Below, one piece after another: positions 1-36,800 of a DNA stretch of 44,229 nt (the first letter of the stretch is position 1; every line of letters starts with the position of its first letter). The stretch covers positions 78,906 to 123,134 of the forward strand of contig PS015073.1 of the NCBI GenBank assembly GCA_048213135.1, in the 5' to 3' direction. The stretch is from Reclinomonas americana ATCC 50394. Lineage: Eukaryota. The notes beneath the pieces are model-generated. The model did not search any database and was not told the origin of the DNA. It saw only the letters and a list, made by a program, of their open reading frames with translations. The translations under genes and the position numbers were made by a program.

Positions 1-240
1 TCCTCGTTTCCTACTCCTCCTCTCCTCTCCTCTCTCTCTCCTCCTCCTCCTCTCCTCTCTCCTCTCTCCTCTCTCCTCTCTCCTCTCTCCTCTCTCCTCT
101 CTCCTCTCTCCTCTCTCCCTCTCTCCTCTCCCCTCTCTCCTCTCCCCCTCTCCTCCCCCTTCTCCTTCCCCCTTCTCCTCCCCCTTCCCTTCCCCCCTTC
201 TTTCCCTTCCCCCGTGCCTCCCCCGTCTCCTTCCCCCCCT
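1..240. repeat. CT-rich low-complexity intron tract
   Basis: Almost pure C/T, upstream of the acceptor at 273. Confidence 0.95.
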
Positions 241-273
241 TGTTGCTCACTTGGCATCCCACCACCGTCGCAG

Positions 274-3200
274 TCTCAACAACGTCATTCGCAAGATGAC
301 GTTTCCTCAAGCATCAGTGGTCTCGACCACGCCTTCCACCCTCACCGGCACCTCATCGTCGCTCGTCACCGCCAGTGTCACGGGACTCACCACCAATACT
401 CTCTATTACTACCGCGCGGTGGCCACGTCGTCTGCGGTTCCTATCATCGGCAACGTATTCAGCGTTACCACCATGTCCAGCGCACCACAGCTGGCCAGTA
501 CAACGACAGCCGTGACCGCCGACAGCGCTGCCACCATGTACGGGACGGTCAACGCCAACGGCGTTGGTTCTGCCTCTGTCAAATTCGAGTTTGCGACCAC
601 GATGCCGGCGTTTGTGTGGAATGTGTCCACGGTTGCCGGGTTGGCAACAGTGTTTGGTACAGCAAATGGAGTTGGATCCGCCGCTCGCTTCAACGCACCG
701 CAGGGCATCACTCTCGACGGCCTCGGCAATGCATATATCACGGACACCGGGTACGTGCACAGTGACTGCACTCACATGTCTTATGCGCTCAATTCTTGTG
801 CTCGCTTTTATGTCGAACAGGTATAGCACCATTCGCAAAGTGGTGCTCAGCTCGTTCACTGTGAGCACATTCGCCGGCACTGCCGGATTCCGCGGGTACT
901 TGGATGGTACCGGCAGTGCTGCACGTTTCAATTCGTGCGTACACTGTTCCTCTCGAGCAAGTATTGTGCAGCACAAGCTGTCTAACTTTCTGGGGTTGGC
1001 AGTCCTGGGTCCGCGTCTTACGACACTGTCAACAACTTCCTGTATGTGGCCGACACCCTCAGTCACACCATCCGTCGTATCACCACCGGTGGTGTGGTGA
1101 CCACCATCGCCGGGCAGCCAGGCACTCCGCTGTGGATCGACGGCACTGGAAGTGCAGCGGCGTTCAATTCGCCACGCGGCGTGTTTGTGGACCCCGTCGG
1201 CCAAATGCTCTATGTCGCTGATACATCCAACCACGCCATTCGGTGAGCTGAAGGAGAAGAAAAAAGAAGAAAAGACTACGTCAAAGTTGAAAGGGAAGAG
1301 TAAGAGGAACATGAAGAGGAAGAGGCGGAAAGAGTGCTACGTGGCTCAGATATCTTGTTTGTGTGTGTGTGTGTGTGCGTGTACTTGTGAACGTGGAAGA
1401 GCGACAGAGTGCGAGAGATTCACCTGGCAAGCCTACATCTCTGCCCTAAATGGATGCGTTGTGCATGTACGCGTGAGAGAAGGAGCGTGCGAGACAAGGA
1501 CAGAATACTGGAGGCAGAGAGAAATATAGCTGGATCATGTCTCTCTCTCTTTCTCTCTCGTGGTGCTTTCTCTTCTCGTGTTGCCCGCTGGCCTTCTCCC
1601 ATGAGTTAGTCACTTTTTCCTTTGTCGTGCAGCACGGTCACTGCGGCAGCCGGTGGTACAGTGGTCACACTATTTGGATCAGGCCCAGCGTCCTCCGGCA
1701 GCACAGACAGCAGCGGCGGCACTCCAAAGTTCAGCAGCCCGTACCATGCTGTGTTCGATCGGGCCAACAACTTGCTCTACATTGTGGACCGTTCCAATCA
1801 TTGCATCCGGAAAATCGACCTCAGCACTATGCTAGTGACGACCTTTGCCGGCACCAAAGGGAGCAGTGGGTTCACTGACGGTCCCGTCGGCGTGGGTCGT
1901 TTACGCCTTCCCACTTCAGCGACGCAAGATACTGCGAGGAATGTGTTGTATGTGGCCGATGTTGCGTCGCTAGAGCATCTGAGAAGCGTTTATCTGTTGT
2001 TGTGTTCTCACCAGTGTGTTGTCTCGACGCAGCAAACGTCCAACAGCATCCGATCTGTATCCTCCACCGGCGTGATCACGACAGTCGCTGGTTTGGCGTC
2101 ACTTACAACCGACTCAGTTGACGGCGCGTCATTGGCTGCACGATTCAATCAGCCCGTTGCGTCTCAATACAGCACTTGAATGCGTGGCCATCTTGTGCCT
2201 CACACATTGAATGCAGTACGGCATCGTGCTGGACCCGGTGTCGGGCATCCTGTACATCACCGATCAGTCCAATTACACGCTACGTACACTGACGACTCCG
2301 ACGGCCACGTCGGTGGCTGGCACACCGAGTCCTGTCACAGGCTCATCGACAGTGACCGCCAGCGGTGCTGCAACGGCACTAACGCTGCGAGGGACGTACT
2401 ATTATCGCATCGTGGCGACGATTGGCCTGGTGGTGCAGTATGGCACGCTCCGCACGTTTGTGGCCGAAGCCACGTTTACCGCATCGACTCCAACCAATGT
2501 GTTCCAAGTTGCCGGTCAGTGTTTGTCGTTGACGCGCACCGACAGCGCGCAGAATGTGGGAGCCGATGCGCAAGCGGTGGTGCTCAGTGCCACGACTTGC
2601 AGCACGGGGTGCGTGGTGATGGAAAGAGAGAAAGGAGAGAAGAGAAAGAGAGAAGGATCGTGTGCATCCATGCGTCAGATCGTGTTGTGGAGCATTGTGT
2701 TTATGAGTTGCTCCTGCACATTTGTGTGTATGCGCACATCCTCATAGAGTGACGGGGAGTTGTGTGCTTGGTTTGCATCTCTCTGTGTTTCTATGTGCGT
2801 CCGTAAGTGAGTGCTGTGTGTGCTGTTGAGTTCTTGAATTTCTCCTCACTCCCTGTGGATGTGTGCATTGTGTACATTGAGTGTGTGTGTGGATGTGTAT
2901 GTGTGTGTCTCTCGAAGCATCATGTGCATGAACTTTGCCTCTCTCTCTCTCTGTCAGCGCTTGTGTGTGTGCGTGTGCATGTTGCAAACCGTTGCCCACT
3001 TAACGTGTCCCTGTCAGTAACGATTTCTTCTCTCTCTTTCTCATATTCTCTGTTGCAGCTTCGCTGTGGCCTTCTCCCTCCCAGCGACAGTGGTGTCGAA
3101 CACGCAAGTTCTTGCCACCATCAACGGATCATTGTTGATGCCGGCCACCACGTACCGAGTGTGCGGTCGCATGTCGTCTTCGTCGCCGTACTATGATGCT

Positions 3201-6200
3201 GGTTCTGTGCAGGCGTCAGGTGCGGTCTTGTTGCTCACTTTTTATTCCCCGTCGATACGGTCTCCTGATTTGTTGCGCCTCCTTCATATTTTCAGTTGCC
3301 GTCACGCAAGTGTCGCCGCTCGCGCTGTTCCGCCGTGCGTCAGAGGTGGTGACAGTGACTGGCACCTCGTTGCCCAACTTGTCGTCCGACTCGCAAGCGT
3401 ATGCACTGTCATCTGGCTCGACTTGCGCAGCGGCTTCATCGTCAGTGGCAATCACCGCGTCATATCCGTCGACGACCAGCTCGACGTTCACATTTGACTC
3501 GTCGTCGCTGGCGGTGGGAACGTACACGCTTTGCGTGCGGTGCGTTGTCTGTGTTTCTTTGTGTTGTTTGCCTACGCTGCTGCAATACCATTGCTCATCC
3601 TCACTGTGCACACTCACAGACCCGTTTCGGCGTGCACGAGCTGGGCGGCGCTGACCACCATTACGATTCCGTCATTCAGCCTGTCGCCGGCTGTGATTGG
3701 TTCCTCAGCTACGGCGCAGATCACGATCAGTGGCACTCTGTTTGTCAATGTGTTTGGATCGGACAGCAGTGCGCTCAGCTTTGGGTGTCAGGAGAGCGTT
3801 GCGCAAGCTACGGCAGCTGCCGTGACGGGCACGTACACCAGTGCATCGCTGATGAAAGCTACGCTGGATACGACCAGCATTCCATCGGGCGCCTACACTC
3901 TCTGGTGCGTCTGCATGGAGAGTCTCGTGCTTGTTGTGCGTTTTCCACGGGTTACTGATTGTTGGTGTCGATGCGCACAGCATTCGATGGAGTGCGTCAG
4001 CAGTCGCTGGCGCGCTCGGCGTGGTCAACATTGCCCGTGCGACCTCTGTGTCACCGGCTCTGGTCTTTATCAATGCCAGCAACTCGTGAGTTTGCTGAAG
4101 AGTGATGCACTCGAGATGTTGAATTTGGAACTCATGATGCCCCTTCATCCAACAGTCATACGGTGCAAGTCGGAGGTGGTGGATTCGTGTCATCATTGGC
4201 CAGCGACGCTTCCCTATTTGTGGTGTCGTCGTCGTGTGCGGCCGCGGCACCGACAGCAGTAATGTCAACGTCGACACAGTCGACGCAGTATATCGATGCA
4301 CAGACGTTGTCAACCAGCGTCGTGAGTGCCTCGGCGACGACGCCAGCGGGTAACTATCAGCTGTGTGAGTTTGGGGGAGCGAAGAGAGAAGAATATGCAG
4401 TTCATCGGCTTGAGTGTCGCTTTTATCGTTCTCATGCCCGGGTGTTCTTATACAGGCATTCGGTGGTCGACTGGTGCAACGACATACGAAAGTGCTGGCG
4501 CCTTGGCGCTGGCTTCTGTCTCAAGCATTGCGCCGCCGATTATTCCTGCGGGGTACAGCACGCAGCTGCAGATCTCGGGTGGTGGCTTCTTGGCGTCGCT
4601 GCAGACGGTGGCGCGCATGCTGGTGTTGACCAGCGGCTCGTGCAGCGTGAGCGCGGACACGACGGCGGGTGTGGGCGGGATAGTCGATTCAGTGACGGGC
4701 TCGTCAGCCATAGCAGTGACGGTGTCACCAAGCTCGTCGTTGACCGGTGGTGTGTATCGCGTGTGTATGCGTGCGACACCGACTTCGGCATACGAGGATG
4801 TCTATCCAGCTGGGATTTCGATTGGTGAGTGACTTGACACTTGTGCATTGTTGCAAGTTGGCTGGGCTCGCGTCTTTCCTCTCTGTCTTGCTTCCCTTGT
4901 GACTCACTCGTGTTGTGTTTGTGTTCAATGTGCAGTTTCTGCGTCGACATTCAGTCCGTCGACCAAACTGCTCGGCGAGGGCGGAACGCTGGTGGTGACG
5001 GGAGTGGGACTGTCGGTCAATGGTACGGTGCGCACAGTTCGCATCGAGCCGGGTTCGGTTTGCACGAGTGGCGCTGGGTCGACAGCTGCTGGTGGCACAG
5101 TGACGATGACGAGTGCAAACATGAGCCACAATGCGGGACTGACGGAACTGACGGTGACGTTGACGGGCGGATTGAGTGTGGCAGGTCCATATCGAGTGTG
5201 CGTGGAGTACATGAGTACGGTTGACAGTGACGATGTGTTTGTTGCGGTGGAGAGTGGCGTGGTTCTTGTTGGTGAGTGATTGCGGTAAAGGAGGGGGAAA
5301 GACGGGTAGAGAAGGGGGGAAGAGGAGGAAGAGAAGGGAAGATAAGGTGTGAGAATAATCGAGAAGGAGACACAGTGTGAGAGGTTGTGTGACGAGACAA
5401 CGGCACGTGTTGATCTTGTTTCCAATCAAGATCTCAAGCACGCTTTGTTATAGATATAATATCGAATCTCGGAGAGACATACCAGAGCGATGTACACTGT
5501 TGCTGATGAAGTCCGTTGCGCACAGCGACCGTGTCCGGGATTGTAGCACCAGGCGAGGTCGTGGCTGCTGCTGGCGGATCGACTGTGGTGATTGGCGGTC
5601 AGGGACTGGGGAGTGCATCGATTCGGGCAGTGAGGTTCGAGAGTGGCAGCATGTGCACGACGGGCGGTGGAGCGCCGAGTGGACCGTATGTGGATGTGAG
5701 CAGCAGTGGCGGCGGTGTGTCGACGAACGCAGGCAATGGGTACACGTCGACGACGGTGACGCTGCCGGCGGCTGGCGGATTGCCTGCTGGAGTGTGGATT
5801 GTGTGTGTGGAGTTTGCGGGCAGTGCGATTGGGAGCGGATCGTTTGTGCGGGTCGCGGGTGATGTGGTTGCGAGTTGCGTTGAAGCGGGAAGATGTTTTA
5901 AACAAGAGGGTCGGGTGTGAGAGTGCGAGAGTGTGAGGCAGATAATTCCTGTATTTTTTGCAGAAGTGTTGAACTTGTCCCGTTGTGTGTTATCTTTATG
6001 TCTCTCCCGTTCTTGTTGTGTTTCTCACTTTCTTGTTGTGCTGATTAGCTTTGATCTCTTTCTCTCTCTTGTCACTTTCACTCACTCTTCTCTATCCCCT
6101 TCTCCAGCCACCACGAACAGCGCTGCGTCGAGCTTCAGTCCGCACTCGCAGTTGCCAAATACGGTGACCACGATTGTGATCACGGGTGTATCGTTGGCAC

Positions 6201-8864
6201 CTCGTGTGGGTGTGAGAACGGTACGAGTGGAACCCGGCACCGTGTGTACCAGCGGCGCGGGCAATGTGCCGGTCATGGGAACTGTGACGGTTCCGTCGAC
6301 ATCTGCGATGCAACTGTCGGTGAACGGAGGGTGGACGGAGTTGAGTGTGTCGGTGGGAGCATTTGCGACGGTGGGGACACGAGTGGTGTGTGTGCAGTAT
6401 GCGTGGACACCGGTTGCGGCGGAGACTTATGCGCAGGTGGCGGATTTTTTTGTCGTGTACGGTACGCTTCATGATTTTTTCTCTCTCACGGTGTGTAACG
6501 AGACTTACGTGTTTCTTCTGGTTGTCACAGATATTCCATTCGCCTTCAGTCCCTCCACGGTGACACCGCCGCTGCCGTTCCAGCTGGTGGTGTTCGGCGT
6601 GCTGCTAAGTGCATCGACCGTGTCTGCAGTTCGGGTTCAGCGCAGTCCATTGTGCAGCTCTGGTGCAGCAGCGGCATCGTTTGCGTTGGATTTCGCGGGC
6701 GCGGATCTCGACTTTGCTGTCGATTTCTCCACTGTCTCCGCCATGGTACCACAACTGGATCCAGCATCGTACAGCGTGTGCGTTCGGATGGCGCCCTCAC
6801 TCTCTGCGGCTGGATTCGTTCGTGTCTCTTCATTCTCTCTCAACGTGTTTGCCGGTGCGTGTGCTGCTGCCACCACACTGTGTGCTTTCCTCTCACTCGT
6901 CTGTTTGCTTACTTCCGACAACAGGACCATCGATCTCCATGGTCGCCCCACTGCCGGGTGCGACGTGGGTGCGCCGCAACGCGTATTCGGTGTCGTGGAC
7001 GTGCTACAGCGTTGGACAGGCGGTGATGATTGATACGGTGGATGTGTTGCTGCTGCATGCCACGGGAGCCGCCCATTCGTTTTCTATTGCCAGTTGCGCG
7101 CACACTCCATGTCCTCGCGTCTTCACCCTTCTGCGTGCATATCATGTCGACCAACCACGTGCTCGCAGACAACGTACCGTGCGTGTGCGACGGCCAGACT
7201 GTGAATCGCCTGCCAAGCGACTGGGCCGTCAGCCCCGATGTGCTCACCGACAGCGGCAACGAAGTGGTCGTACAGCAAGTGGTTCCGAGTGGCACGCCGC
7301 CACTCACTGCCTGGTCGAGAATCCAAGTGCAGCCGCGACAGATTGTCGTCTTGTATCCCACCGACGCCATCAATGTGCACAACGACAGTGTGATTCCAGT
7401 GACGTTTGCGTGCAATCGCAGCGAGCTGCGTCGCGTGCGAGTGGCGGTGACTGTGCCGAATGTAGATGTGGACTCGCTGGGCAACTTTGAGTTCACGGAT
7501 GTGCCGCAGAGTCTGCCAGCTCGCGACCGCGACCTGGCCGACGAGGATTCGCAGCGGGTCGACCTCAGCAGTCCGCTTCTGCTGGCATCGTACGTGGTGA
7601 ACGCCACGTGCGACACTGCCGTGCCGAACTTGTTTGCGTTCAATGTCACGTCCTGGGAGGGTCCGCCACTGTTGCGCATCCTTGTGCTTGACGATTTCGA
7701 CACGGACGAGCTGCTTGTCGGCAAGTCCGGCACGATTGTGCTGGTTGACAATCAAGGCAATGCTGCCACTGCTGCTGGTGCAACTGGTGATGCTGGTGGT
7801 GGTAGTAGCAGCGGTGGTGTAACTGGCGTTGGTGGAGGAAGTGGTGTGGGACCGGTGGATGGGGGAAGTGCGGTTAATGGCGACTCATCGTCATCGTCGT
7901 CGGATGTGCAAGGACCTACGTCTGATGGCGGAGCTGTGAAATATTGGTGGTGGATCTTCTTGGTCATTACGGCTGTCGCGGTCTCGATCCTCATGGTGGT
8001 GTGGTGGCGACGCCGGCGAAGACATGACCGTCGGGTAGAGGAAGCACGCGCGTTGATGGAGGCGGACATGACGGAGCAGATGGAGATGGTTGATGTCGAG
8101 GAAGAGATGAGAGGTTTGGGGAAGGGAGATGGAGGGAGGGAATGGCGAGGGAGGGAATGAGAGAGCAGAATTGGCAAGGAAGGGAAAGATGGAGAGAATG
8201 GGAGATTGAGAGGCGGATAAACAGAGTGTGTGAGAGAGTGTACATGTGGGAGAGCGAGGAGCGATATTGGGCTTGAAATCAGGAAGAGAGAGAGAGGGAG
8301 AGAGAGAGGGAGGGAGAGGGAGAGGAGCAGAGGGAGAGGAGCAGAGGGAGAGGAGCAGAAAGAGTGAGGGAGAGGAGCAGAGGGAGAGGAGCAGAAATAG
8401 CGAGGGAGAGAGCGAGAGAGAGAGGGAGAGAGGGAGAGAGGGAGAGAGGGAGAGAGGGAGAGAGGGAGAGAGGGAGAGAGGGAGAGTGAGTGCGTGAGAG
8501 AGAGAGGGAGAGAGAGAGAGGAGGAGAGAGGAGAGGAGGAGAGAGGAGAGGAGGTAATTAAATTAGTAGGAAGATACTCGACCTAGTTTGGTGGCAGTCG
8601 ACGAAGCGGTAGGTGTGATAGAATGAGATGACAGCTAGAACGACTAGAGTGGATAGCAGCNNNNNNNNNNNNNNNNNNNNNNNNNNNNNNNNNNNNNNNN
8701 NNNNNNNNNNNNNNNNNNNNNNNNNNNNNNNNNNNNNNNNNNNNNNNNNNNNNNNNNNNNNNNNNNNNNNNNNNNNNNNNNNNNNNNNNNNNNNNNNNNN
8801 NNNNNNNNNNNNNNNNNNNNNNNNNNNNNNNNNNNNNNNNNNNGAGCGTGTGCTGAGCGTACGC

Positions 8865-8913
<49 letters not shown>

Positions 8914-10174
8914 GAGAGAGGGAGAGAGGAGAGAGGGATTAAATTATTGGAAGATATCGCCATTTGTGGGCAGTCGCAAGCGAGGTGTGATGAATGAGAT
9001 GCAGCTGAACGACTAGATGGATAGCAGCAGACAGATGACTGTGATGTCAGTGTACGGGAGAAAGATAATTCATCGCGAGATCCAGTCAGGCAGGGGGTAA
9101 AGTGAACGCGAAAGAGATGCGGCTAAACGACCAGATATATAGCAGCAGAGAGACAGACGACTGTGGTGTCAGTGTATGGGAGAAAGGTATTTCATCACGA
9201 GAACGAGGCAGGCAGGGGGTAAAGTGAATGTGAATGGGATGCAGTTGAGCCATCACATGGATAGTGGCAGAGAGACAGACGACATTTATTTCAGTGTAGT
9301 GTTGGGAGAAAGATACTCATCCAGCACGGCAAAGGGGAAATGGAATGTGAACGGGATACGGCTGAAGTCAACTGTGGGTCGACTGTCTGAGACAGATTTC
9401 TCATGCGACACAATAGCGCATCTCTGTCGAACTCTTTTCAATTGTTCACTCCCTTTTATTGTCACGTGCAGATGAACCCGTCGGTACTGGACTCACAGCG
9501 CTGCTGGTGCGTAATCGCAGAGAAGACGTATTTCGCAGTAGAGAGCTGCTTCTTGTCACACGCAAAGATTCAGCATGAGCAAACCCACCTGAGTGTTTGC
9601 GGCTCTTTTGCTGACGATGAATCGTGCAGGCACCACCGCCTCCACCACCTTTGCCACCTGTCGGCTTTGCAATTCCTCGACAACACAACTTCCAACAGAT
9701 GTTGCAGGCATTCCAGTCGAGACAACGTCACCTGCAGGAGGTGAGCTGGCCAGGCTTTCGCTATGCGCTCGCACTCAGCACCTAACTTTGAGGCAAACAG
9801 ACGGCTGACCGAGACCTCCCGTACCCACCCTCCGTTGATGACGATGCGAGGCTGCTTGAATTGCCTGGTGAGTGTGCTCTCTCTGAAATTGTGAGTCCGT
9901 CCTCTCATGTCGTTCTCCACCCCACCAGGCCTGCGATACGAGGCGATTGTGTTGACGAGCGCCACGATAACCACCCCTTCGAATTCTGAGCGCGATGATC
10001 CATTTGTTATAACTCGACCTTCTCTGCGTTGCGTAACATCGCAGTGCCAGTGTGTACTGCCTCACGTGCTCATGCGGTCTGTGTGCAGTGTTGCGACGCT
10101 TGGTGGAGGAGCGACTGCGGAGATATAGTGGGCGTCCGCCATTGACCGATGACCGTGATGCGGATGTGGAGTGA
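274..10174 (+). CDS. Gene A (5'-partial): NHL-repeat / FN3-like / Ig-like type-I membrane protein
   Basis: Manually spliced GT-AG exons with consistent phases: 274-750, 821-934, 1003-1242, 1633-1960, 2033-2155, 2217-2608, 3059-3219, 3296-3539, 3620-3904, 3981-4085, 4156-4364, 4456-4824, 4936-5271, 5526-5873, 6108-6461, 6531-6854, 6925-7092, 7169-8113, 9472-9506, 9630-9740, 9801-9867, 9929-10027, 10089-10174 (TGA). Splicing restores NHL motifs (FNxPxG...YVADxxNxxIR) and GxYxLCxR motifs across junctions. Confidence 0.85.
616..2300 (+). other. 6 NHL-type blades (third propeller), gene A
   Basis: Blades FNAPQG, FNSPGS, FNSPRG, FSSPYH, LRLPTS, FNQPYG. Equivalent regions are about 16250-17990 (B) and about 32815-34510 (C). 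Confidence 0.8.
2460..7760 (+). other. About nine Cys-paired IPT/Ig-like repeats plus about two repeats of a second beta-sandwich type, gene A
   Basis: Units of about 110 aa start with S-x-S-P...V-T-V-T-G, carry a central Cys and end G-x-Y-x-[LV]-C-[VIM]-R. The last units start SISMVAPLPGATWVRRNAYSVSWTC. Fold assignment is by eye only. Confidence 0.6.
7942..8007 (+). other. Transmembrane helix, gene A
   Basis: YWWWIFLVITAVAVSILMVVWW, preceded by a Gly/Ser linker and followed by RRRRR (positive-inside). Confidence 0.9.
8280..8553. repeat. GA-rich microsatellite-like tract
   Basis: (GA)n and GGGAGAGA units in intron 8114-9471; paralogous tract at 24780-24891. Confidence 0.9.
8995..9370. repeat. 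Imperfect tandem repeat of about 120 bp (about 3 copies), intronic
   Basis: Recurring gatgcRgYtRa...atggatagYRgcagagagacagacgac...gggagaaagRta...ggcagggggtaaagtgaa near 8997, 9117 and 9238; paralog at about 24950-25290. Confidence 0.75.
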
Positions 10175-10264
10175 AGCGGTTTGCGGAACGAAAAACGCAA
10201 AGTAGACAGCGAGTCGAGGCATTCTCTCTCGATTGGGCAGGAATCGGCGTGACCGTGTGGAGTA

Positions 10265-10314
10265 TGGTATGGCCATATCAAGCAGTTTTTGGTATGGCCA
10301 CATCAAGCAGTTTG
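10265..10314. repeat. 25-bp tandem duplication in the A-B intergenic spacer
   Basis: tggtatggccatatcaagcagtttt / tggtatggccacatcaagcagtttg. Confidence 0.85.
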
Positions 10315-10468
10315 ATTGGCGAAATTATTGTCTACTTTCCATTCGTCTATTTGTTTGTGTTTGTGCGTGTGCGTGTGATTATTCGTGTTTTGCGAGTACG
10401 CGCGCGCACGTGTGTGTGTTCACTTGCTTTGTTATTGTGACACCAAGCGTGCGTGTCTATTTGCTGCG

Positions 10469-10720
10469 ATGATGTTCGAGGCAAGTTTGTCTGCAAAAAA
10501 AAGGAAACGACAATGTCGGCGGCAGCAGCGCTGGCAGAGGTGAGACACACCACTGCGCAGTTCTCACACGAGAGAGGCAGAGAGCACAGAGTGTGCATGT
10601 GTTCATTATTGGACAAATCATCGCTCTCACACACACTCACACACTCACTCACTCCACAGTGTGTTGCTGCTGCCACTGCTGCTCCTCCTCGTCGCCTGCT
10701 CGCCTCCACTCGCACACGCT
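10469..10720 (+). other. Signal peptide of gene B, split by intron 10540-10659
   Basis: Spliced sequence MMFEASLSAKKRKRQCRRQQRWQSVLLLPLLLLLVACSPPLAHA|AQ has a basic n-region, a Leu-rich h-region and an A-x-A cleavage motif. Gene C has the same layout (26425-26480 plus 27078 onward). Confidence 0.75.
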
Positions 10721-11210
10721 GCACAGACAGTGGCCACTGGCCCCGCGAGTGAGATCCTCGTCAATGGCGCCACCATGAGCGCACTGGCCTCCGCCAATGA
10801 TCAGCCTTCGACCGCGGTCTCCATGCAGTATGGTACCTCGCAGACCATGTTTTACTCGTATTCTTCGGTGTTGGGAGGCACGCCACCGGCGCCGGGTTCG
10901 ACGCTGGGCACGGGCACAGCGGCGCAGTTCTATGGACCTGCTGGAATCGCTGTTGACTCGCTGGGCAACGTCTATGTGGCGGATCGGTGAGGGAGAAGAG
11001 GGAGTCTGAGAGAGATGGAGGAGAGAGGGGGAAGAGAGGGAGAGAGAGAGAGGAGAGGAGAGACAGGGGACAGGAAGGGGGAGAGGGAGAGGATGGGCAC
11101 CGATTCGTGGTGTGAAGGACTCTGCGTAGGAACAAGTGGATGTGGCTGGGATCGCACACTAGTTTGTGCTTCGTGTTGATGCATGAGTTGGGAGTGGGAT
11201 TGGTGATTCA

Positions 11211-11242
<32 letters not shown>

Positions 11243-11385
11243 GGAGGGAGGAGGATGACGGCATCTTCTTGCAGCTGCGGAGACTGGCAGTCGGTGAGTG
11301 AGATCTGTGCCGGAGACGCAGCATGAGCCGCACTTGTTTATTCACAGAGACACACCAAGGAAGATGAAGACTGATACTCGCGACG

Positions 11386-11421
<36 letters not shown>

Positions 11422-26127: not shown

Positions 26128-26424
26128 TCAGTGTCGATAATGAATTGCTCTTGCCACGAGGTGGACACACCGTCCCATCGGAGTCGGTCATATTTTCTTC
26201 GTTGCTCTGTGAGGTGGCGAGCATTCTGAAATGCCATTCGGTGCCGGGCGAAATTGCCGCCTATATTGTCTATTTTCTTTGTCACCATCGTGTGCGCCAG
26301 CGTGTCTCTCTCTCTCTCGCTGTTTGTGTGTGTCTCACTCGCTCTCGCGAAAGAAAACAAGAGCGTGTGTGCGTGTGTGCGCGTGCACTTCTTTGTAAGA
26401 AAGAGTGTGTACGAGTGCTGCATC

Positions 26425-27513
26425 ATGTTCGGTTCGACTTTGCGTCACAGCCGGAAAACGCATTGTCGGCGGTGGCTGAGGTGAGGCGCTCACTTTCTCT
26501 CTCTCACATGCAGACTGAAGGCGAGAGGCAAAAGAGAGACGCGCATGAAGCATTGGCTGAATGCATACTAANNNNNNNNNNNNNNNNNNNNNNNNNNNNN
26601 NNNNNNNNNNNNNNNNNNNNNNNNNNNNNNNNNNNNNNNNNNNNNNNNNNNNNNNNNNNNNNNNNNNNNNNNNNNNNNNNNNNNNNNNNNNNNNNNNNNN
26701 NNNNNNNNNNNNNNNNNNNNNNNNNNNNNNNNNNNNNNNNNNNNNNNNNNNNNNNNNNNNNNNNNACACTCTACACTCACACTCACTCCTGCACTCTCAC
26801 TCACTCACTCACACACACACACTCACTCACTCACTCACTCACTCACTCACTCACTCACTCACTCACTCACTCACTCACTCACTCTCTCTCTCTCTCTCAC
26901 TCACTCACTCACTCACTCACTCACTCCCTCCCTCCCTCCCTCACTCTCTCTCTCTCTCACTCACTCTCTCTCGCACACTCTCTCTTTCTCTATCACTCTC
27001 CCTCCTCTCTCTCCCCTTCTTTTTTCTATCCCTCCCTTCCTCCCTCCCTCCCTCCCTCACTCACTCACCCTCTCCAGTGTGTGGCTTCTGCTGCCACTGC
27101 TGCTCCTCCTCGTCGCCTGCTCGCCTCCACTCGCACACGCTGCACAGACAGTGGCCACTGGCCCCGCGAGTGAGATCCTCGTCAATGGCGCCACCATGAG
27201 CGCACTGGCCTCCGCCAATGATCAGCCTTCGACCGCGGTCTCCATGCAGTATGGTACCTCGCAGACCATGTTTTACTCGTATTCTTCGGTGTTGGGAGGC
27301 ACGCCGCCGGCGGCCGGTTCGACACTGGGCACAGGCACTGCGGCGCAGTTTAGTGGGCCGTTTGGTGTTGCCACTGACTCGCTGGGCAACGTCTATGTGG
27401 CGGATCGGTGAGTCTGGAGGGAGATCAGAGGGGAGAGGGGAAGGGAAGATGCGAGGAGAGGGAAAAAAAGGAGAGGGAGAGGGCAGGGGAGAGTGAACGC
27501 GATATGTGTTCCG

Positions 27514-27556
<43 letters not shown>

Positions 27557-27671
27557 GAGAGAGGAGTGTAGGTAGTGGAGTAGAGAAGGAGAGTAGGGAA
27601 GGGAAGAAAGGAGGAACNNNNNNNNNNNNNNNNNNNNGAGGAGGAGGAGGAGAGAGAGAGAGTAGAGTAGT

Positions 27672-27713
<42 letters not shown>

Positions 27714-30700
27714 GAGAGAGGAGTGACTTGGGAGTGACAAGGAGATGGAAGGGGAGAAAAGAGGAGGGCGAAACGAGGGGTGCCAAGGTGGGGAAACGGG
27801 TGGAAAGGTGAGGCAAGGGGAGATGGAAGGAAGGGCAAAGGGGAGACAAGGAGAGGGAAAGAGAAGAGAAAAGAGAGAATGGGGATCGGGAGAGGGAGAC
27901 ACGGAGAATGCAGGGGAAAAAAGAGAAAGATGGAGATGGGGAAATGAATAAGGAAATGCATTGGAGACAGAGAGGAAGGAGAAAGCAAAGTCTTGGAGAC
28001 AGAGAGAGAGAGAGAGAGGAAATGCGTTGGAAAGAGATGCACGGGATGGCAATGACGAGGCGCGCAGAAGAGACTGGGCGTGTGAGGAGATGCGGATTGA
28101 GAAAATGGATGCCAGGAGACACACGCGCACGTTGAGAAGGGCACCGGCAGAACAGACGGAAGCGGGTACAGGATTGAGTAATGCCGCAGGGCACCGAGTT
28201 GTTCGAGAAGGTAGTGCCCTAGAATGCTGGGCTGCGGGTGTTGCAGGAGGATGACTTGCTTCTTTCCTGTCTACCGTCCCTGTGTTGCTCACTCGATTGC
28301 AACTTTCTCGTCACCTCAGTGCCAATTACGTCATTCGGTTCGTGCAAACTCGTGTGCCCCTTGGCTATTTCGTCAGGCCTTAATCTCTCGTCGCACAGAG
28401 TAATTTCGCCAACCGCCGTCGTCACTGCGCTTGCCGGCAATATCGGGAGTTCAGGCACCGCAGACGGGACAGGCACAGGTATTGTCCTTGATTGCGGTGC
28501 ATGTAGAAGTCCGGAGTGCTCACCTCTCTCTCTCTCTCTCTGTGTGCGTGTGCGTCTCTTGTTCATCTTCCTCCTTTCCCCTCCCTTCACTCTCTTGCCT
28601 TCCCCCTTTGCCTTCCCCCTTTGCCTTCCCCCTTTGCCTTCCCCCTTTGCCTTCCCCCTTTGCCTTCCCCCTTTGCCTTCCCCCTTTGCCTTCCCCCTTN
28701 NNNNNNNNNNNNNNNNNNNCCCTCTTTGCCTCCCCCCTTTGCATTCCTCCTTTTCCCTCCTTCTTCGTCTTTCTCCTTGGCCTTCTCTTCCCCCTTTGCC
28801 CTTCTCTCCCCTCTTTGCAGCCGCTCGCTTCAACCTTCCGCGCGACCTCGTCGTCGACAACGGCAACGTGCTGTGGGTGCTGGACGTTGCGTCACATTTT
28901 TTTGCGACGACTTTTTTCCGTCTGCATCCGATGCTAACCGCGGCAGCACTCGTCGGCGCAGGGCGGTAACAACTGCATTCGCAAGGTCACCATCACCGGC
29001 GCTCCCATTGGTGTTGTCACGACTCTGGCAGGCACGTGCGGCTCGTCGGGCAGTGTGGACGGCACGGGAAGCGCGGCGCGCTTTCAGGTCGGTCTCTTGA
29101 AGTGGCTGTTGGTGGCAGATCCATGCTTGTTATTCACTCTCCCTTTCAGAATCCGGCTGGCGTCGACTACGACGCAGGGACAGCGTCGCTCTACGTAACC
29201 GATGTTGCGTAGATCATCGTGCTTTTGCCAACCCCCTCCCCCTGACTATTGCCGCCCCGCAGTACGACAACTCGACGGTCCGTCAAGTCACCGTTCCCGG
29301 TGGTGTGGTCACCACAATTGCTGGCACAGCTGGAACGCCGGGCAACCTCGATGGCACTGGTGCTGCCGCCCGCTTCAACAATGTGCGCCCCCAAGTATCC
29401 TCCAAATCCTTCTTGCACCTCGCTCACTCTTGCCCATCTTCCTGCAGCCTTGGGGAATCGCCGTTGACTCAGCAACTGGCCTGGCATGGATCTCCGACAC
29501 TGGTAATCGGCTCATCAAGACAGTTACGTATGTCTTTCCTTTCATTCCTTGCTCCTGGTTTCTTTCTTGCTTTCCACTCTCTTCTGTTGCTCTCCTTGTT
29601 CCTTACGTCCTTCTCCCCGTTTGTCTTCTGCGTGCAATCTTCTGTTCTTAATTCATGCTTTTTTTCACTCTCACATTGACTTTCAATCGCAGATGACAAT
29701 TCCCGGCGGTACAGTGACCACCGTGGCTGGTACGACTGCGTCGAGCACCATCACAGACGGCAACGGCACGAGTGCCGTGTTCAATGTGCCGGCTGGTGGT
29801 TCCCTCGACGGCACCGGATTCTTCTACGTGATTGAACAGAACTCGCACTGCTTGCGCCGCGTGTCGATCACCGCCCCGTATACCGTGACATCGGTTGCCG
29901 GTATGTGTTTCTTCGTTCCCGAGTGTACCGAGTTGTCTGCTCACACCGGCGTGGTTTGCAGGCCGGTGCGGCTGGTCTGGCTATGCCGACGGCACTGGCG
30001 CTATGCCGCTGGGTCGCATGTTCTATCCGCGAGGGTGTCGATCCGACAAGGCAGGCACACTGTACATTGCTGACGCCAGCAACAATGCCATTCGCCGTTA
30101 CATTCCCGCAACGCCGGCGTTGAACACATTTGCCGGTTCCGTCAGCAACGCCGGCTCCACCAATGGCTCTCCCGGTCGCCTCAACAATCCAAACGACGTG
30201 GCGGTTGACTCGATGGGTAATGTGGTAGTCGCAGATGTTGCGTGAAACGGCGAAGGGAGTGTGGGGAAAGTGAGGTGACAGTGGCTGAGCCAGGATTGTG
30301 TGTCTCAATGCTTGGTTGTGCATTGTCTGAATCGCTGGCAGAGGCGTTCTTCAGTCGTTTTCTCGTTCGCTCTTCACCAATCGTATTACTTGTTTGTCTT
30401 GTCTTCTGCTGGGTATTCCTCTTGCGCTGTTTCCATGCGTTTTTTCCTCTCTGCCTCTCGCGCTCTCATTTGTCGCTGGTTCCGATGACTTTATCGCTTC
30501 GTGTGAATGTCCTTGTCGTTTTGTTGCGCCCTCCATTTGTGCATGACCACCCTTCTTGTCGCTTGCTTTCTCCGCCCTCTTTCCCTGTTCAGACCGGCAA
30601 CCACGCCCTGCGCTACGTCACTGCCGCTGGAGTGACCAGCACACTGGCTGGTCAGGTGGGCACGCCGGGCACGGCGAACGGCACATCGACGGGTGCTCAG

Positions 30701-30815
30701 TTCAATGGACCACGCGGTATTGGTATTGACTCCACAGACACGATTTGGGTTGCCGATTCCGGCGCTCACACGATTCGCAAGGTGTGTACTTTATCCTGCG
30801 GACTCTCTCTCTCTT

Positions 30816-30850
<35 letters not shown>

Positions 30851-33800
30851 TCATTCTTCCTGACATATATTCTCCTCGTAGGTGACGCTTGCCGGCGTGG
30901 TGACCTCGTTTGCGGGCACTGCAGGTACTGCAGGCATCGGCAGTGGTGTGCCTGGTCTGCTCAGCAACCCGGGTGACGTCGCCACCGACTCGGCCATCAC
31001 GAACATGTTCGTCGCCGACACGGATTCCAACACAATTCGCAAAATTGTCGTGTCGACCGGATCTATATCCACGTTTGCCGGCAGCGCCACGGGTGTTTCT
31101 GGGTCCGCCAATGGTACTGGTACTGCTGCGACGTTCAATGGTGAGTGTGTGGGGAGAGAAGAGTTAAGCAAAGCAAGAGATACAGTCTACAAGGTGGAGA
31201 GGAGGGACGATGAGAGAGGCAGAGAGAGAGAGAAAGAGAGAGAGAGAGAGGAGAGTGGAGGAGCAGCATGAAAGTGGCTTGATGGATGGTCACGGATAGT
31301 TATGCACTGCCCATTCGTGGGCTGGCTTCCTTCTCGCGTGCTTTCCGGAGAGACAGAGGTCAAGAGTTAATGAGGGGAGCAGTGAGCTTGCTGCGTGTGC
31401 TAGACTGACAGAGCGCTTCGCCTGTCCACTATTCTTGCTTCGTCTCCTGCTCATCACTCTGCATTATCGTTTCCTTGTGATCATTCTCGCGGCTTACTTC
31501 TTGCTCGCACTCGTCCAGGCCCCACGAGCGTTGTCGTCGGCCCGACTGGCATCGTGTATGTCGCCGACTCGAACAATCGCATGATTCGCGCCATCACGGC
31601 AGCCGGTGTGGTGACGACCCTCGCTGGATCAACATCCTCTGGCTCCACTGATGCCACGGGAACTTCGGCTCGATTCAACAACATGATGGGCCTGGCAATC
31701 AGTGCGCTTGGCGACGTGCTGTACGTTGGTGACAACAATAACCACGGCATTCGGCGAGTGACGACTGCAGCCGGTGTGACCACCACGTATGCTGGCGGCG
31801 CGAATGGCCCGGGATACGTTGAGGGCACTGGCCCGGCCATCCGTTTCTTCTTCCCGTTTGGACTGGCGGTGAGCTCGGCGGGCGATGTGTACGTGGCTGA
31901 CAGGTGCGGTTGGGTGAAGGGACAGTGTGTGAGATAGAGAGGGACAGGGAGGTAGCATTGCTACTGATTGCGCTGTTCAGTCCGCGGGTTACTTCTCGTC
32001 CTGTCCCGCCCTGTTCATCCACCGTGCTTCTCCTTCTTCTCGCTCCTCTGTCGCTCTCCACTCCTCTGCCGCTCTCCACTCCTCTTGCTCCCCACTCCTC
32101 TGTCGTACCTCACTCATCTGTCGCTCGCCACTCCTCTGTCGCTCGCCACTCCTCTGTCGTGCTCCACTCCTCTGTCGTGCTCCACTCCTCTGTCGTGCTC
32201 CACTCCTCTGTCGTGCTCCACTCCTCTGTCGTTCTCCACTCCTCTGTCGTTCGCCACTCCTCTGTTTTTCCCCACTCCTCTGTCGATCCGCACTCCTCTG
32301 CTTCCCCCTCCTTTGTTTTCCCCACTCCTCTGTCGCTCTCCACTCCTCTCTCGATCTCCACACCACCTTCTCCTTCCCCCTTCTCCTTCCCCCTTCCTCT
32401 TCCCCCTCTGTTCCTTCCCCTTGTTCTTCTCCCTTGTCGCCCTCTTTCCTCACTTGCACCCACCACCATCGCAGTCTCAACAACGTCATTCGCAAGATGA
32501 CGTTTCCTCAAGCATCAGTGGTCTCGACCACGCCTTCCACCCTCACCGGCACCTCATCGTCGCTCGTCACCGCCACCATCTCGGGACTTATTGCCAACAC
32601 CATTTACTACTACCGAGCTGTGGCCACCTCGTCTGCGGTACCCATCTACGGCAATGTGTTTGGTGTGACCACCGTGTCCAGCGCACCGCAGCTGGCCAGT
32701 ACGACGACGGCCGTGACCGCCGACAGTGCTGCCACCATGTACGGGACGGTGAATGCCAGCGGCGTCGGCTCCGTTTCAGTCACGTTTGAGTACGCCACCA
32801 CCATGCCGGCTTTTGTGTGGAATGTGTCCACGGTTGCCGGTTTGGCAACAGTGTTAGGCGCAGCAAATGGCGTTGGCTCAGCCGCGCGCTTCTACCTCCT
32901 TCAAGGCATCACTCTCGACGGTCTCGGCAATGCATACATTGCGGACAGCGGGTGTGTGCAATGTCGTTTTCGATAGCCTCATTCATTCCTCTTGTTCACT
33001 CACTCTTGTGACGTTGAACAGATATAGCACCATTCGCAAAGTGGTACTCAGCTCGTTCACCGTGAGCACATTTGCCGGCACTGCTGGGTTCCGCGGCTAC
33101 TTGGATGGTACCGGCAGTGCTGCGCGTTTCAATTCGTGCGTACACTGTTCCTCTCGAGCAAGTATTGTACAGCACACGTTTTCTAACTGCTGCGGTTTGC
33201 AGTCCTGGCTCCGTGTCGTATGACACTGCCAACAACTTTCTGTACGTGGCCGACAGCTTGAGTCACACTATCCGGCGAATCACCACCGGTGGTGTGGTGA
33301 CCACCATCGCCGGGCAGCCAGGCACTCCGCTTTGGGTCGATGGCACTGGAAGTGCAGCGGCTTTCAATTCGCCACGCGGCGTGTTTGTGGATCCCGTCGG
33401 CCAAATGCTCTACGTCGCTGACACATCCAACCACGCCATTCGGTACGTTGTTGGGAAGTGGGGAACGAAGAGGAGAACAGGGAATGCAGGTTAGATATAG
33501 AAGAGGATGCTGCTTAAAATGGAATGAGAAGAGAAATTGAAAGAGAAGAAGATAGGAAGAGAAAGAGGAAGAGGCAGGAAGAGTGCAACGTGGCTCAGGT
33601 ACCTTGTCTGTGTGTGCACGTATGAAAGTGAGAGTGAGAGATTCACCTGAAAGCGTCTCTGCCCTAGCTGGAAGCGTTGTGCATGTACGCGTGAGAGAAG
33701 GAGCGTGTGAGGCAGGGACAGAATACTGGAGGCAGAGAGAAATATAGCTGGATCATATCTCTCTCTCTTTCTTGGCGCTTTCTCTTCTCGTGTCACCCAC

Positions 33801-36800
33801 TGGCCTTCTCTCATGCGTTACTCACTTTTTCCTCTGTCGTGTAGCACGGTCACTGCGGCAGCCAGTGGCACAGTGGTCACTCTGTTTGGATCAGGCCCAG
33901 CGTCCTCCGGCAGCACAGACAGCAGTGGTGGCACTCCCAAGTTCAGCAGCCCGTACCATGCTGTGTTTGATCGGGCCAACAACTTGCTCTACATTGTGGA
34001 CCGTTCCAATCATTGCATCCGCAAAATCGATCTCAGCACTATGCTAGTGACGACCTTTGCCGGTACCAAAGGGAGCAGTGGGTTCACTGACGGTCCCGTC
34101 GGCGTGGGTCGTTTACGCCTTCCCACTTCAGCGACGCAAGATACTGCGAGGAATGTGTTGTATGTGGCCGATGTTGCGTCGCTAGAGCGTCTGAGAAGCG
34201 TGCATTTTTGTTCTTTTCTCATAAGAATGTTGTCTTGACGCAGCAAACGTCCAACAGTATCCGATCTGTGTCATCCACCGGCGTGATCACGACAGTCGCC
34301 GGTTTAGCGTCACTGACAACCGACTCGGTGGATGGCGCGTCATTGGCTGCTCGATTCAATCAGCCCGTTGCGTCTCAATACAGCACTTGAATGCGTGGCC
34401 AACTTGTGCCTCACGCTGCATGCAGTATGGCATCGTGCTGGATCCGATATCCGGCATCCTCTACATCACTGATCAAACCAATTACACGCTGCGTACGCTG
34501 ACGACTCCGACGGCCACGTCAGTGGCTGGCACACCGAGTCCGGTCACAGGCACATCGACAGTGACCGCCAGTGGCGCTGCTACGGCGCTGACGCTGCGAG
34601 GGACGTACTTTTACCGTATTGTGGCGACGATTGGCCTGGTGGTGCAGTACGGCACGCTGCGCACGTTTGTGGCCGAGGCCACCTTCACAGCATCGACCCC
34701 GGCCAACGTATTCCAAGTTGCCGGTCAGTGTTTGTCGTTGACGCGCACCGACAGCGCGCAGAATGTGGGAGCCGATGCGCAAGCGGTGGTGCTCAGTGCC
34801 ACGACTTGCAGCACGGGGTGCGTGGTGATGGAAAGAGAGAAAGGAGAGAAGAGAAAGAGAGAAGGATCATGTGCGACCAGATCCATAGTGAGTGCGTGTT
34901 GTGGATCGTTGTGTTCATGAGTTGCTCTTGCAAATGTGTGTGGATGCACGCATCCATGTGGTAGTGACGGGGCGTTGTGTGCTTGGTTTGCATCTCTCTG
35001 TGTTTCTATGTGCGTCCGTAAGTGAGTGCTGTGTGTGCTGTTGAGTTCTTGAATTTCTCCTCACTCCCTGTGGATGTGTGCATTGTGTGTGCGTTGAGTG
35101 TGTGTGTGGATGTGTATGTGTGTGTCTCTCGAAGCATCATGTGCATGAACTTTGCTCTCTCTCTCTCTCTCTCTCTCTGTCAGCACTTGTGTGTGTGCGT
35201 GTGCATGTTGCAAACCGTTGCCCACTTGACGTGTCCCTGCCTGAAACGATTTCTTCTCNNNNNNNNNNNNNNNNNNNNATTCGCTGTGGCCTTCTCCCTC
35301 CCTGCGACAGTGGTTTCAAACACGCAAGTTCTTGCCGCCATCAATGGATCATTGTTGATGCCGGCCACCACGTACCGAGTGTGCGGTCGCATGTCGTCTT
35401 CGTCACCGTACTATGATGCTGGTTCTGTGCAAGCGTCAGGTGCGGTGTCGTTGCTCACTTTCTCTTTCCCTCGATGTGATCTCCTGACTTGTTGCGCTCC
35501 CTTTATCTCAGTTGTCATCTCGCAAGTGTCGCCGCTTGCGCTGTTCCGCCGTGCGTCAGAGGTGGTGACAGTGACTGGCACCTCGTTGCCCAACTTGTCG
35601 TCCGACTCGCAAGCGTATGCACTGTCATCTGGCGCTACGTGCGCAGCGGCTTCATCGTCAGTGGCAATCACCGCGTCGTACCCATCGACGACCAGCTCGA
35701 CGTTCACATTTGATTCGTCGTCGCTGGCGGTGGGAACGTACACGCTCTGCGTGCGGTGCGTTGTCTGAGCCGTTTGTGTTTTTCACTGCAATCTGTGCAT
35801 CTTATCCTCCCTGTGCACACTCACAGACCCGTTTCGGCGTGCACGAGCTGGGCGGCCCTTGACCCTTGACCACCATTACGATTCCGTCATTCAGCCTGTC
35901 GCCGGCTGTGATTGGTTCCTCAGCTACGGCGCAGATCACGATCAGTGGCACTCTGTTTGTCAATGTGTTTGGATCGGACAGCGGTGCTCTCAGCTTTGGG
36001 TGTCAGGAGAGTGTTGCACAAGCAACGTCTGCTGCCGTGACGGGTACGTACACCAGTGCATCGCTGATGAAAGCCACGCTGGACACGACCAGCATTCCAT
36101 CGGGTGCCTACACTCTCTGGTGCGTCTGCATGGAGAGTCTCGTGCTTGTCGTGCAAATTCAATAGGTCGCTGATTGTTGGTGTCCATGCGCGCAGCATTC
36201 GATGGAGTGCGTTGGCAGTCGCTGGCTCACTCGGCGTGGTTAACATTGCCCGTGCGACCTCTGTGACACCGGCTCTGATCTTTATCTCAGCCAGCAACTC
36301 GTGCGTTTGCTGAAAAATGATGTACCCGAGATGTTGAATTTGGAACTCATGATACCCCTTCATCCAACAGTCACACGGTGCAAGTTGGAGGTGGTGGGTT
36401 CGTGGCCTCGTTGGCCGGCGACGCTTCCCTGTTTGTGGTGTCGTCGTCGTGTGCGGCGGCGGCACCGACAGCAGTGATGTCAACGTCGACACAGTCGACT
36501 CAGTATGTGGACGCGCAGACGTTGTCAACCAGCGTCGTGAGTGCATCGGCGACGACGCCAGCGGGAAACTATCAGCTGTGTGAGTTTGGAGGAGAGAAGG
36601 GAGAAGAATCTGCTATTAATCGATTTATAGTGTCGCTTGCTTCGTTCTCATGCCCGGGTATTCTCACGCAGGCATTCGGTGGTCGATTGGTGCCACGACA
36701 TACGAGAGTGCCGGTGCACTGGCGCTGGCTTCTGTCTCAAGCATTGCGCCGCCGATTATTCCTGCGGGGTACAGCACGCAGTTGCAATTCTCGGGTGGCG

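Follow-up and report, generated by a model that had tools for sequence, protein, structure and literature searches.

A predicted second class of displaced 5′ splice sites, GTTGCGT, in a tandem gene family of Reclinomonas americana

Besides the usual register, both a register shifted by one nucleotide (nt) and a bulged one are described as established for human 5′ splice sites in excerpts of two papers (PMC4856993, PMC9311317), and, taken together, the validated noncanonical registers account for 1.5% of 201,541 human 5′ splice sites (excerpt of PMC4856993). Here we analyzed a stretch of 44,229 nt from Reclinomonas americana ATCC 50394 (GenBank assembly GCA_048213135.1, contig PS015073.1, positions 78,906 to 123,134 of the forward strand; hereafter the window, numbered from its first letter), where a set of introns in one tandem gene family begins with GTTGCGT and where the common donors begin with GTGCGT or GTGAGT. 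The human shifted-register motif resembles GUUAAGU. To our knowledge, shifted and bulged registers have been proven for only a small minority of human sites, by means of reporter genes.

The human shifted-register sites (Roca and Krainer 2009, as cited in excerpts of PMC4856993 and PMC9311317) share with these donors, which we call the GTT class, an extra U after GU and a consensus one base off, as well as a +1G that replaces −1G, cleavage at GU, and exons that do not end in G. However, the human sites are rare and pair via AAGU, whereas the GTT class has a GCGU core (GUUGCGU) and accounts for 9 of the 35 introns of one gene; unlike the human sites, it pairs very poorly with the standard U1 and is known here from sequence alone. 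Human bulges at +2/+3 keep −1G, whereas no GTT-class donor has −1G and the extra base is U in every case. What the bulge shares with the GTT class is the extra U between GU and the displaced consensus (excerpt of PMC4856993).

The atypical GTGCGT core, the majority donor class of the window, is also found in Ostreococcus lucimarinus, whose donors outside chromosome 2 have a GTGCGTG consensus (Irimia and Roy 2008, excerpt of PMC2483917). That alga combines it with a strict ACTGAC branch site and an intron-poor genome, whereas the window has a loose yTnAy branch motif and roughly one intron for every 300 nt of coding sequence; the excerpt does not describe a GTTGCGT class for it. The diplonemid donor consensus, (G)/GTATG in an excerpt of PMC12621601 (the slash marks the exon–intron boundary), was considered and does not match the window. 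Among the top-ranked literature, taken as main texts, we found no publication on GTTGCGT donors or on a lineage rich in shifted registers; the host genome paper may report them. The normal donor of Entamoeba is GTTTGT, with U at +3. Entamoeba indicates that an intron start of GTT is compatible with efficient splicing, but there it is the sole genome-wide consensus, in the normal register, whereas here it forms a second class beside GTGCGT/GTGAGT, with the conserved G at +6.

The window carries three tandem paralogs (A, B, and C) of a very large gene on the + strand, followed by an unrelated gene, D (Table 1). The 20 GTT-class introns of the paralogs correspond to nine homologous positions (I3, I5, I7, I9, I16, I17, I26, I29, and I34). 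A sequence-only reading of the window had listed these 20 donors and held that the reading frame and the consensus of the NHL repeats demand them; all of them read GTTGCG, except 29523, which reads GTTACG, and all 20 are needed for open spliced frames.

Across the nine positions, the bases G, T, T, G, C, and G are each present at 9/9, followed by T at +7 in 8/9. The canonical donors, compared at 25 homologous positions, have G at −1 in 21, G/A at +3 in 22, C/A at +4 in 21, G at +5 in 24, and T at +6 in 16, giving a consensus of GTGCGT, GTGAGT, or GTACGT. The conserved G is thus found at +6 (9/9) and not at +5 (24/25 in canonical donors), and the T at +7 (8/9) and not at +6 (16/25), which bears out the earlier description of the motif as the local consensus with one extra T. 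The A at +4 of the donor at 29523 (I7 of C) parallels the canonical choice between G and A at +3. No GTTGAGT was seen in the class, though 9 of the 25 canonical positions have A at +4. Between paralogs, 90 of 91 pair-sites in +1 to +7 are identical, and identity falls from +8 on.

The signal lies far beyond chance within the locus. The heptamer GTTGCGT occurs 17 times in the window, always on the + strand (shuffle mean 8.4, with 1 of 100 shuffles reaching 17), and all 17 occurrences are curated donors, none being found in exons or on the opposite strand. The hexamer GTTGCG has 37 occurrences on the + strand and 7 on the − strand (shuffle mean 33.9 for both strands); 18 other + strand copies continue with C, G, or A and are not donors, except for the two GTTGCGC copies of I29. 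By comparison, a rough count against the curated table puts the donors among the 56 + strand GTGCGT at only about 20. GTT does occur after G: I1b and one gene D intron (tgg/GTTCGT) read g/GTTCGT, and these are donors of the normal register with U at +3. Three further donors have unusual sequences: in I10 of B (13910), aag/GTCTGCGAT stands against GTGTGT in C and may be displaced by two bases after G; I4 reads cag/GTCGGT in both copies (12295/29088); and I30 of A (8114) reads gag/GTTTGG, where B has GTGAGT.

The class is tied to the last base of the exon. Among the 35 curated introns of B, GTTGCG donors follow G in none and another base in nine cases, while the other donors follow G in 21 and another base in five (Fisher p = 2.8e-5). 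At the 29 homologous positions I1–I29, −1 is G in 0/8 GTT-class donors versus 17/21 others (p = 1.2e-4). The stratification noticed in the sequence-only reading, GTTGCG after non-G ends only, is therefore found again (0/9 G versus 21/26 in the other B donors); its count of 9 in 14 B introns with a non-G exon end was recovered, but its totals of 36 donors and 0/22 with G become 35 and 0/21 here, the signal-peptide exon lying outside the model. The −1 rule would best be read as follows: where the exon is unable to supply a G, the donor is usually GTTGCGT. A synonymous G would be possible at two phase-0 sites (Pro at I17, Thr at I7), where every copy has the rarest codon, CCC or ACA respectively, which is suggestive only.

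If the helix at the 5′ splice site forms one nucleotide out of register, +1G would stand where −1G normally does, opposite C9 of U1, and +3U would stand in for +2U, opposite A7 of U1. The GCGU core, normally at +3 to +6, would move to +4 to +7, while cleavage would stay before GU. We infer both this register and the RNA or protein that reads the GTT-class donors. The donors form a displaced class that strictly follows the −1 rule, and this pattern would fit the shifted register best, a partly supported reading that we prefer to the bulge because +3 is always U, −1 is never G, and the conserved G and U lie exactly one base further on than in canonical donors. Overall, we give a probability of about 0.5 to the reading that these are U2-type introns with a second rigid donor class, N/GUUGCGU, used where the exon cannot end in G and read by a helix that is likely shifted by one nucleotide.

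The exact cleavage position was addressed by listing, within 36 nt, all GT or GC donors and AG acceptors that leave the reading frame open on both sides. At I17, and at I7 of B, GTTGCG is the sole frame-compatible GT; at the remaining sites, the alternatives are non-consensus GTs or the GC inside the motif itself. When the cut is placed directly before GTTGCG, the NHL repeats regain their D-x-x-N-x-x-I/L-R spacing at I3, I5, and I9 and their F-x-x-P-x-G spacing at I17; at I16, they regain the I-R spacing, with N one residue later. The spliced peptides read DTSNHCIR, DYENSTIR, DTGNHALR, DQTSNSIR, and FNQPYGIVLD, with the I/L-R spacing kept in the first four and the Asn position in the first three. 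I34 joins a tail peptide conserved in A and B. A GC–AG donor 3 nt downstream (gtt/GCGT) was rejected, as the extra Val would break D-x-x-N-x-x-I-R or F-x-x-P-x-G at five positions. The canonical GTATGT at 1948/17639/34160 was likewise rejected, as the LYVAD...N core of the NHL repeat would be lost, and the upstream GT alternatives were rejected by NHL motif spacing. If I29 were retained, it would be in frame and stop-free in B (81 nt) and frame-shifting in A (76 nt); the A copy must be removed because of its length.

The segments have the properties of introns. All 20 GTT-class copies start with GT and end with AG, and a branch-like yTnAy (CTCAC, CTCAT, CTGAC, and similar) lies 8–50 nt from the acceptor in 18 of them, with the same spectrum of branch motifs as in other introns. 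Of 46 paralogous exon pairs, 41 agree in length; four differ by multiples of three, and the last one is a 1-nt frameshift in B. Intron lengths differ by a number not divisible by three in 30 of 48 paralog pairs versus 1 of 46 for exons, in line with the earlier argument from non-triplet differences; the lengths it cited (72/74/71 and 76/81 nt) are correct. In the spliced frame, the ratio of nonsynonymous to synonymous substitution rates (dN/dS) between paralogs is 0.05–0.19, with dS of 0.12–0.41, which shows selection on this frame. Neither acceptor strength nor pyrimidine content nor length showed a compensating difference between GTT-class and other introns (p = 0.11–0.97).

Other kinds of introns were considered. 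U12-type introns carry a /RTATCCTT donor and a TCCTTAAC branch site; this type was rejected on account of the GTTGCGT donors and the yTnAy branch motifs. Base pairing of one end of the intron with the other, a feature of nonconventional introns in euglenozoans, was rejected because the GTT class is not distinct overall (Mann–Whitney p = 0.44 against the other introns); such pairing is strong in I16, I29, and I3 of C. A mobile or introner-like family was also rejected, since an all-versus-all blastn-short comparison of the curated introns gave simple repeats and one 13-nt match at 5′ ends, between I34 of B (25975–25987) and I3 of C (28886–28898), which are non-homologous positions identical over their first 13 nt. 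We regard the GTT-class segments as probably genuine U2-type GT–AG introns of functional genes; at the level of sequence, the introns with their predicted boundaries, the motif, the −1 rule, and the conservation of the motif can be counted as shown.

Several observations weigh against the preferred reading of a shifted helix. The standard U1 and U6 sequences are AUACUUACCU and ACAGAGA. With the 11-nt 5′ end of standard U1, from which the host U1 may differ, the RNAduplex energies of 18 GTT-class copies average just −0.8 kcal/mol, compared with −3.7 for canonical non-G sites and −7.5 kcal/mol for canonical −1G sites, and the shifted helix appears for I7 alone (−3.5 kcal/mol, with the same proviso on the host U1). 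With this standard U1, a plain shifted register is therefore energetically unconvincing, and either pairing energy does not select these sites or their reader differs from the textbook U1. The earlier proposal of a shifted or bulged register is thus upheld insofar as the pattern favours the shift over the bulge, but not by the pairing with standard U1. The −1 base is largely fixed by the protein, with an Asp codon at four sites and the first codon base at three, so that the −1 rule may tell when the motif is needed and not how it is read. I3, I5, I9, and I16 share one place in the NHL repeat, right behind the Asp of LYVAD, and may descend from one intron copied with the repeat, leaving perhaps about six independent cases.

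The same caution applies to the breadth of the phenomenon and to the models. Every GTT-class case sits in one gene family, and gene D has none among its four recognised donors; the earlier description of these sites as abundant and routine in the organism draws on this one family. The cleavage sites proposed here were deduced from reading frames, motifs, and comparison of the paralogs. Near 15970, the frame of gene B is shifted: in 15950–15990, the exon after I12 has one base fewer than in A and C (CCTTCC-CCCTC). This loss would be either an error of the draft assembly in a run of C or the mark of a young pseudogene; elsewhere, B has an open frame and is under purifying selection.

Among the other explanations, a dedicated trans-acting reader appears unlikely. 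It would be a variant U1 able to pair with GUUGCGU over its whole length (ACGCAAC), or else a changed U6, U1C, or other component. For example, a U1 with A for C at position 8 would leave two donor classes, each with its own reader. Standard U1 barely pairs with the heptamer, and yet the heptamer is invariant among paralogs at the dS given above; moreover, its complete donor specificity, to be set against the rough 20 of 56 for GTGCGT, and the absence of GTTGAGT make the class more rigid than the canonical one. Since the heptamer is both rigid and perfectly donor-specific, a dedicated variant small nuclear RNA (snRNA) or protein stays in play. U1 genes with different 5′ ends are described for a diplonemid genome (excerpt of PMC12621601). 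However, a single spliceosome with flexible registers is simpler and has precedent. We put forward only tentatively, and as rather improbable, a code of two registers or two readers, in which exons with a final G would take G/GUGCGU, whereas those unable to end in G would prefer N/GUUGCGU, the latter being read through a dedicated variant U1 (ACGCAAC) or an altered U1C/U6 interface. No Rfam family was found in the window at gathering thresholds, hence no snRNA gene there, and no tRNA was found by ARAGORN.

A bulged register, with U1 and later U6 pairing normally at +1/+2 and one U of +2/+3 bulged out, would form as many base pairs as the shifted helix and is experimentally known in humans, where 68 such 5′ splice sites are predicted (Tan et al. 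2016, excerpt of PMC4856993). Here it seems quite improbable: a bulge would not require U, but +3 is occupied by U at 9/9 positions, and −1G, usual in canonical donors (21/26), would add a G:C pair, yet is found in 0/9. We think it very unlikely that there is no special register at all, with weak donors tolerated in short, intron-defined introns and the motif common by descent from a few copied introns. The four positions at one place of the NHL repeat, the two (I25 and I26) at one place of the Ig-like repeat, and the 13 nt common to I34 of B and I3 of C would fit such a descent, but beyond +7 non-homologous GTT-class introns share nothing apart from that match, +1 to +7 stay constant while the rest of the intron diverges, I7, I17, I26, I29, and I34 lie in unrelated protein contexts, and neither the exons nor the opposite strand contain the heptamer. 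Mis-modelled boundaries (the GC 3 nt downstream or another GT), or unexpressed pseudogenes, could be suspected from the in-frame alternatives at several sites, from the frameshift in B, from the B copy of I29, whose 81 nt are open if retained, and from boundaries that rest on sequence, not RNA. This explanation is the hardest to sustain, as NHL spacing excludes the +3 GC donor and the upstream GTs, the sole canonical alternative at I16, GTATGT, deletes the LYVAD...N core, the low dN/dS indicates selection on the spliced frame, and I29 of A, with 76 nt, has to come out.

The window is a piece of a draft eukaryotic scaffold (about 56% G+C, eight N runs). Paralogs A, B, and C are 82–93% identical in DNA sequence (self-BLAST) and encode, in this order, NHL repeats (Pfam PF01436 match), about ten immunoglobulin-like (Ig-like) repeats, a Ser/Gly-rich stalk, one transmembrane helix, and a cytoplasmic tail. 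In tblastn with NHL proteins, matches fell on the + strand only, with the frame changing along the window. The genes were modelled with our own dynamic-programming program, in which exon scores came from codon usage, acceptor scores came from a matrix trained on the program's own output plus a yTnAy branch term, and any GT was accepted as a donor without preference. In-frame donor alternatives were settled by three-way paralog alignments and NHL motif spacing, and the final intron table comprises 35 introns in B plus their homologues in A and C. The donor-blind program picked 12 of the 20 listed sites, or 13 when longer introns were permitted; the seven left were in-frame alternatives settled by NHL spacing and paralogs. 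A run that rewarded GTT donors picked 19 of 20, which is circular and was not counted as evidence.

With 17 introns removed, gene A is open from 274 to 8112 for 1840 amino acids (aa) without a stop, or 1971 aa including the tail. After intron removal, gene C is open for 1142 and 529 aa and gene B for 711, 534, and 1267 aa, with the one frameshift. The C-terminal tails of A and B are colinear and open across the 10028/25975 intron. Codon usage prefers NCG, GTG, and CTG, with a G+C content at third codon positions of 0.65.

Table 1 Genes and GTT-class introns of the window, with the exon end in lower case before the slash.
Feature	Positions	Strand	Exon end/intron start	Length (nt)	Remarks
Gene A	1..10174	+			5′ end cut at window start; NHL/Ig-like-repeat type I membrane protein; 22 curated introns (I13–I34); basis: self-BLAST paralogy, spliced open frame, 1971-aa model with tail, NHL Pfam match, tblastn
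Gene B	10775..26130	+			From first in-frame ATG found; 35 curated introns, 9 with GTTGCG donor
Gene C	27196..37907	+			Broken by N runs; 3′ part diverges and enters a gap; 6 GTT-class donors
Gene D	38767–43408				Separate gene; repeated Ig-like modules
I3 of B	12104..12168	+	gac/GTTGCGTCG	65	
I3 of C	28886..28961	+	gac/GTTGCGTCA	76	
I5 of B	12411..12479	+	gac/GTTGCGTAG	69	
I5 of C	29204..29262	+	gat/GTTGCGTAG	59	
I7 of B	12738..12797	+	aca/GTTGCGTGT	60	Sole frame-compatible GT donor within 36 nt
I7 of C	29523..29692	+	aca/GTTACGTAT	170	Sole copy with A at +4
I9 of B	13342..13720	+	gat/GTTGCGTGA	379	
I9 of C	30237..30592	+	gat/GTTGCGTGA	356	
I16 of A	1961..2032	+	gat/GTTGCGTCG	72	Right behind Asp of LYVAD
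I16 of B	17652..17725	+	gat/GTTGCGTCA	74	
I16 of C	34173..34243	+	gat/GTTGCGTCG	71	
I17 of A	2156..2216	+	ccc/GTTGCGTCT	61	Behind Pro of FNQP; sole frame-compatible GT within 36 nt
I17 of B	17849..17909	+	ccc/GTTGCGTCT	61	
I17 of C	34367..34425	+	ccc/GTTGCGTCT	59	
I26 of A	5874..6107	+	cga/GTTGCGTTG	234	Phase 1; same Ig-like-repeat place as canonical I25
I26 of B	22388..22621	+	cga/GTTGCGTTG	234	
I29 of A	7093..7168	+	cca/GTTGCGCGC	76	
I29 of B	23607..23687	+	cca/GTTGCGCGC	81	5-nt indel versus A copy
I34 of A	10028..10088	+	tgc/GTTGCGTAA	61	Cytoplasmic tail
I34 of B	25975..26035	+	tgc/GTTGCGTCA	61	

I25 (5272/21757) and I26 (5874/22388) cut successive Ig-like repeats at the same place and in the same phase, and ttg/GTGAGT in I25 versus cga/GTTGCGT in I26 constitutes a natural comparison of both donor classes within one gene. 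With the donor-aware program, I26 becomes two introns separated by a possible micro-exon of 21 nt, which is conserved between A and B (5964–5984/22477–22497); the donor at 5874/22388 is used whether or not I26 is split.

Some of the larger introns are repetitive. I12 (15190–15880 in B, 31998–32450 in C, 1–270 in A) contains a tandem unit of about 18 nt (CTCTGTCGCTCGCCACTC-like) and CT-rich runs, and this long intron reads as a spurious open reading frame of 444 aa. Long purine tracts of the (GA)n or GGGAGA type (8160–8950, 24760–24900, 10990–11430, and 27420–28030) stand behind the last long coding exon and fill large introns, and (CA)n and (GT)n runs are common.

The relatives of the NHL exons are NHL proteins only, with 32–51% identity, and those with a named source are bacterial; no eukaryotic relative of the NHL region was recovered with 1610–1960 or the other NHL exons. 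These matches suggest that the region came from bacteria long ago and then gained many introns. An Ig-like exon gave no sequence matches, the C-terminal exon gave one weak match among 1.84 billion representatives, and the metagenome scan found no relative. For gene D, no Pfam family and no sequence relatives were found in the searched range, and its only resemblance, a weak one in the Atlas, is to Kre9/KNH-like Ig domains. The recognised donors of gene D are canonical, plus the tgg/GTTCGT mentioned above.

How a single U1 small nuclear ribonucleoprotein recognises 5′ splice sites of such diversity has yet to be explained. Because a quarter of one gene's donors are rigidly displaced and never follow G, and because the heptamer is donor-specific in the locus, this gene family would be a natural test of register choice and of the handover from U1 to U6. 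For gene prediction in this lineage, donor models trained on GTGCGT/GTGAGT mis-splice or truncate such genes, as did the first models here. If the two-register code were true, GUUGCGU would be a genome-wide donor signal of high specificity and not a tolerated weak site, and if a variant U1 were behind the GTT class, two donor dialects of the major spliceosome would coexist in one cell.

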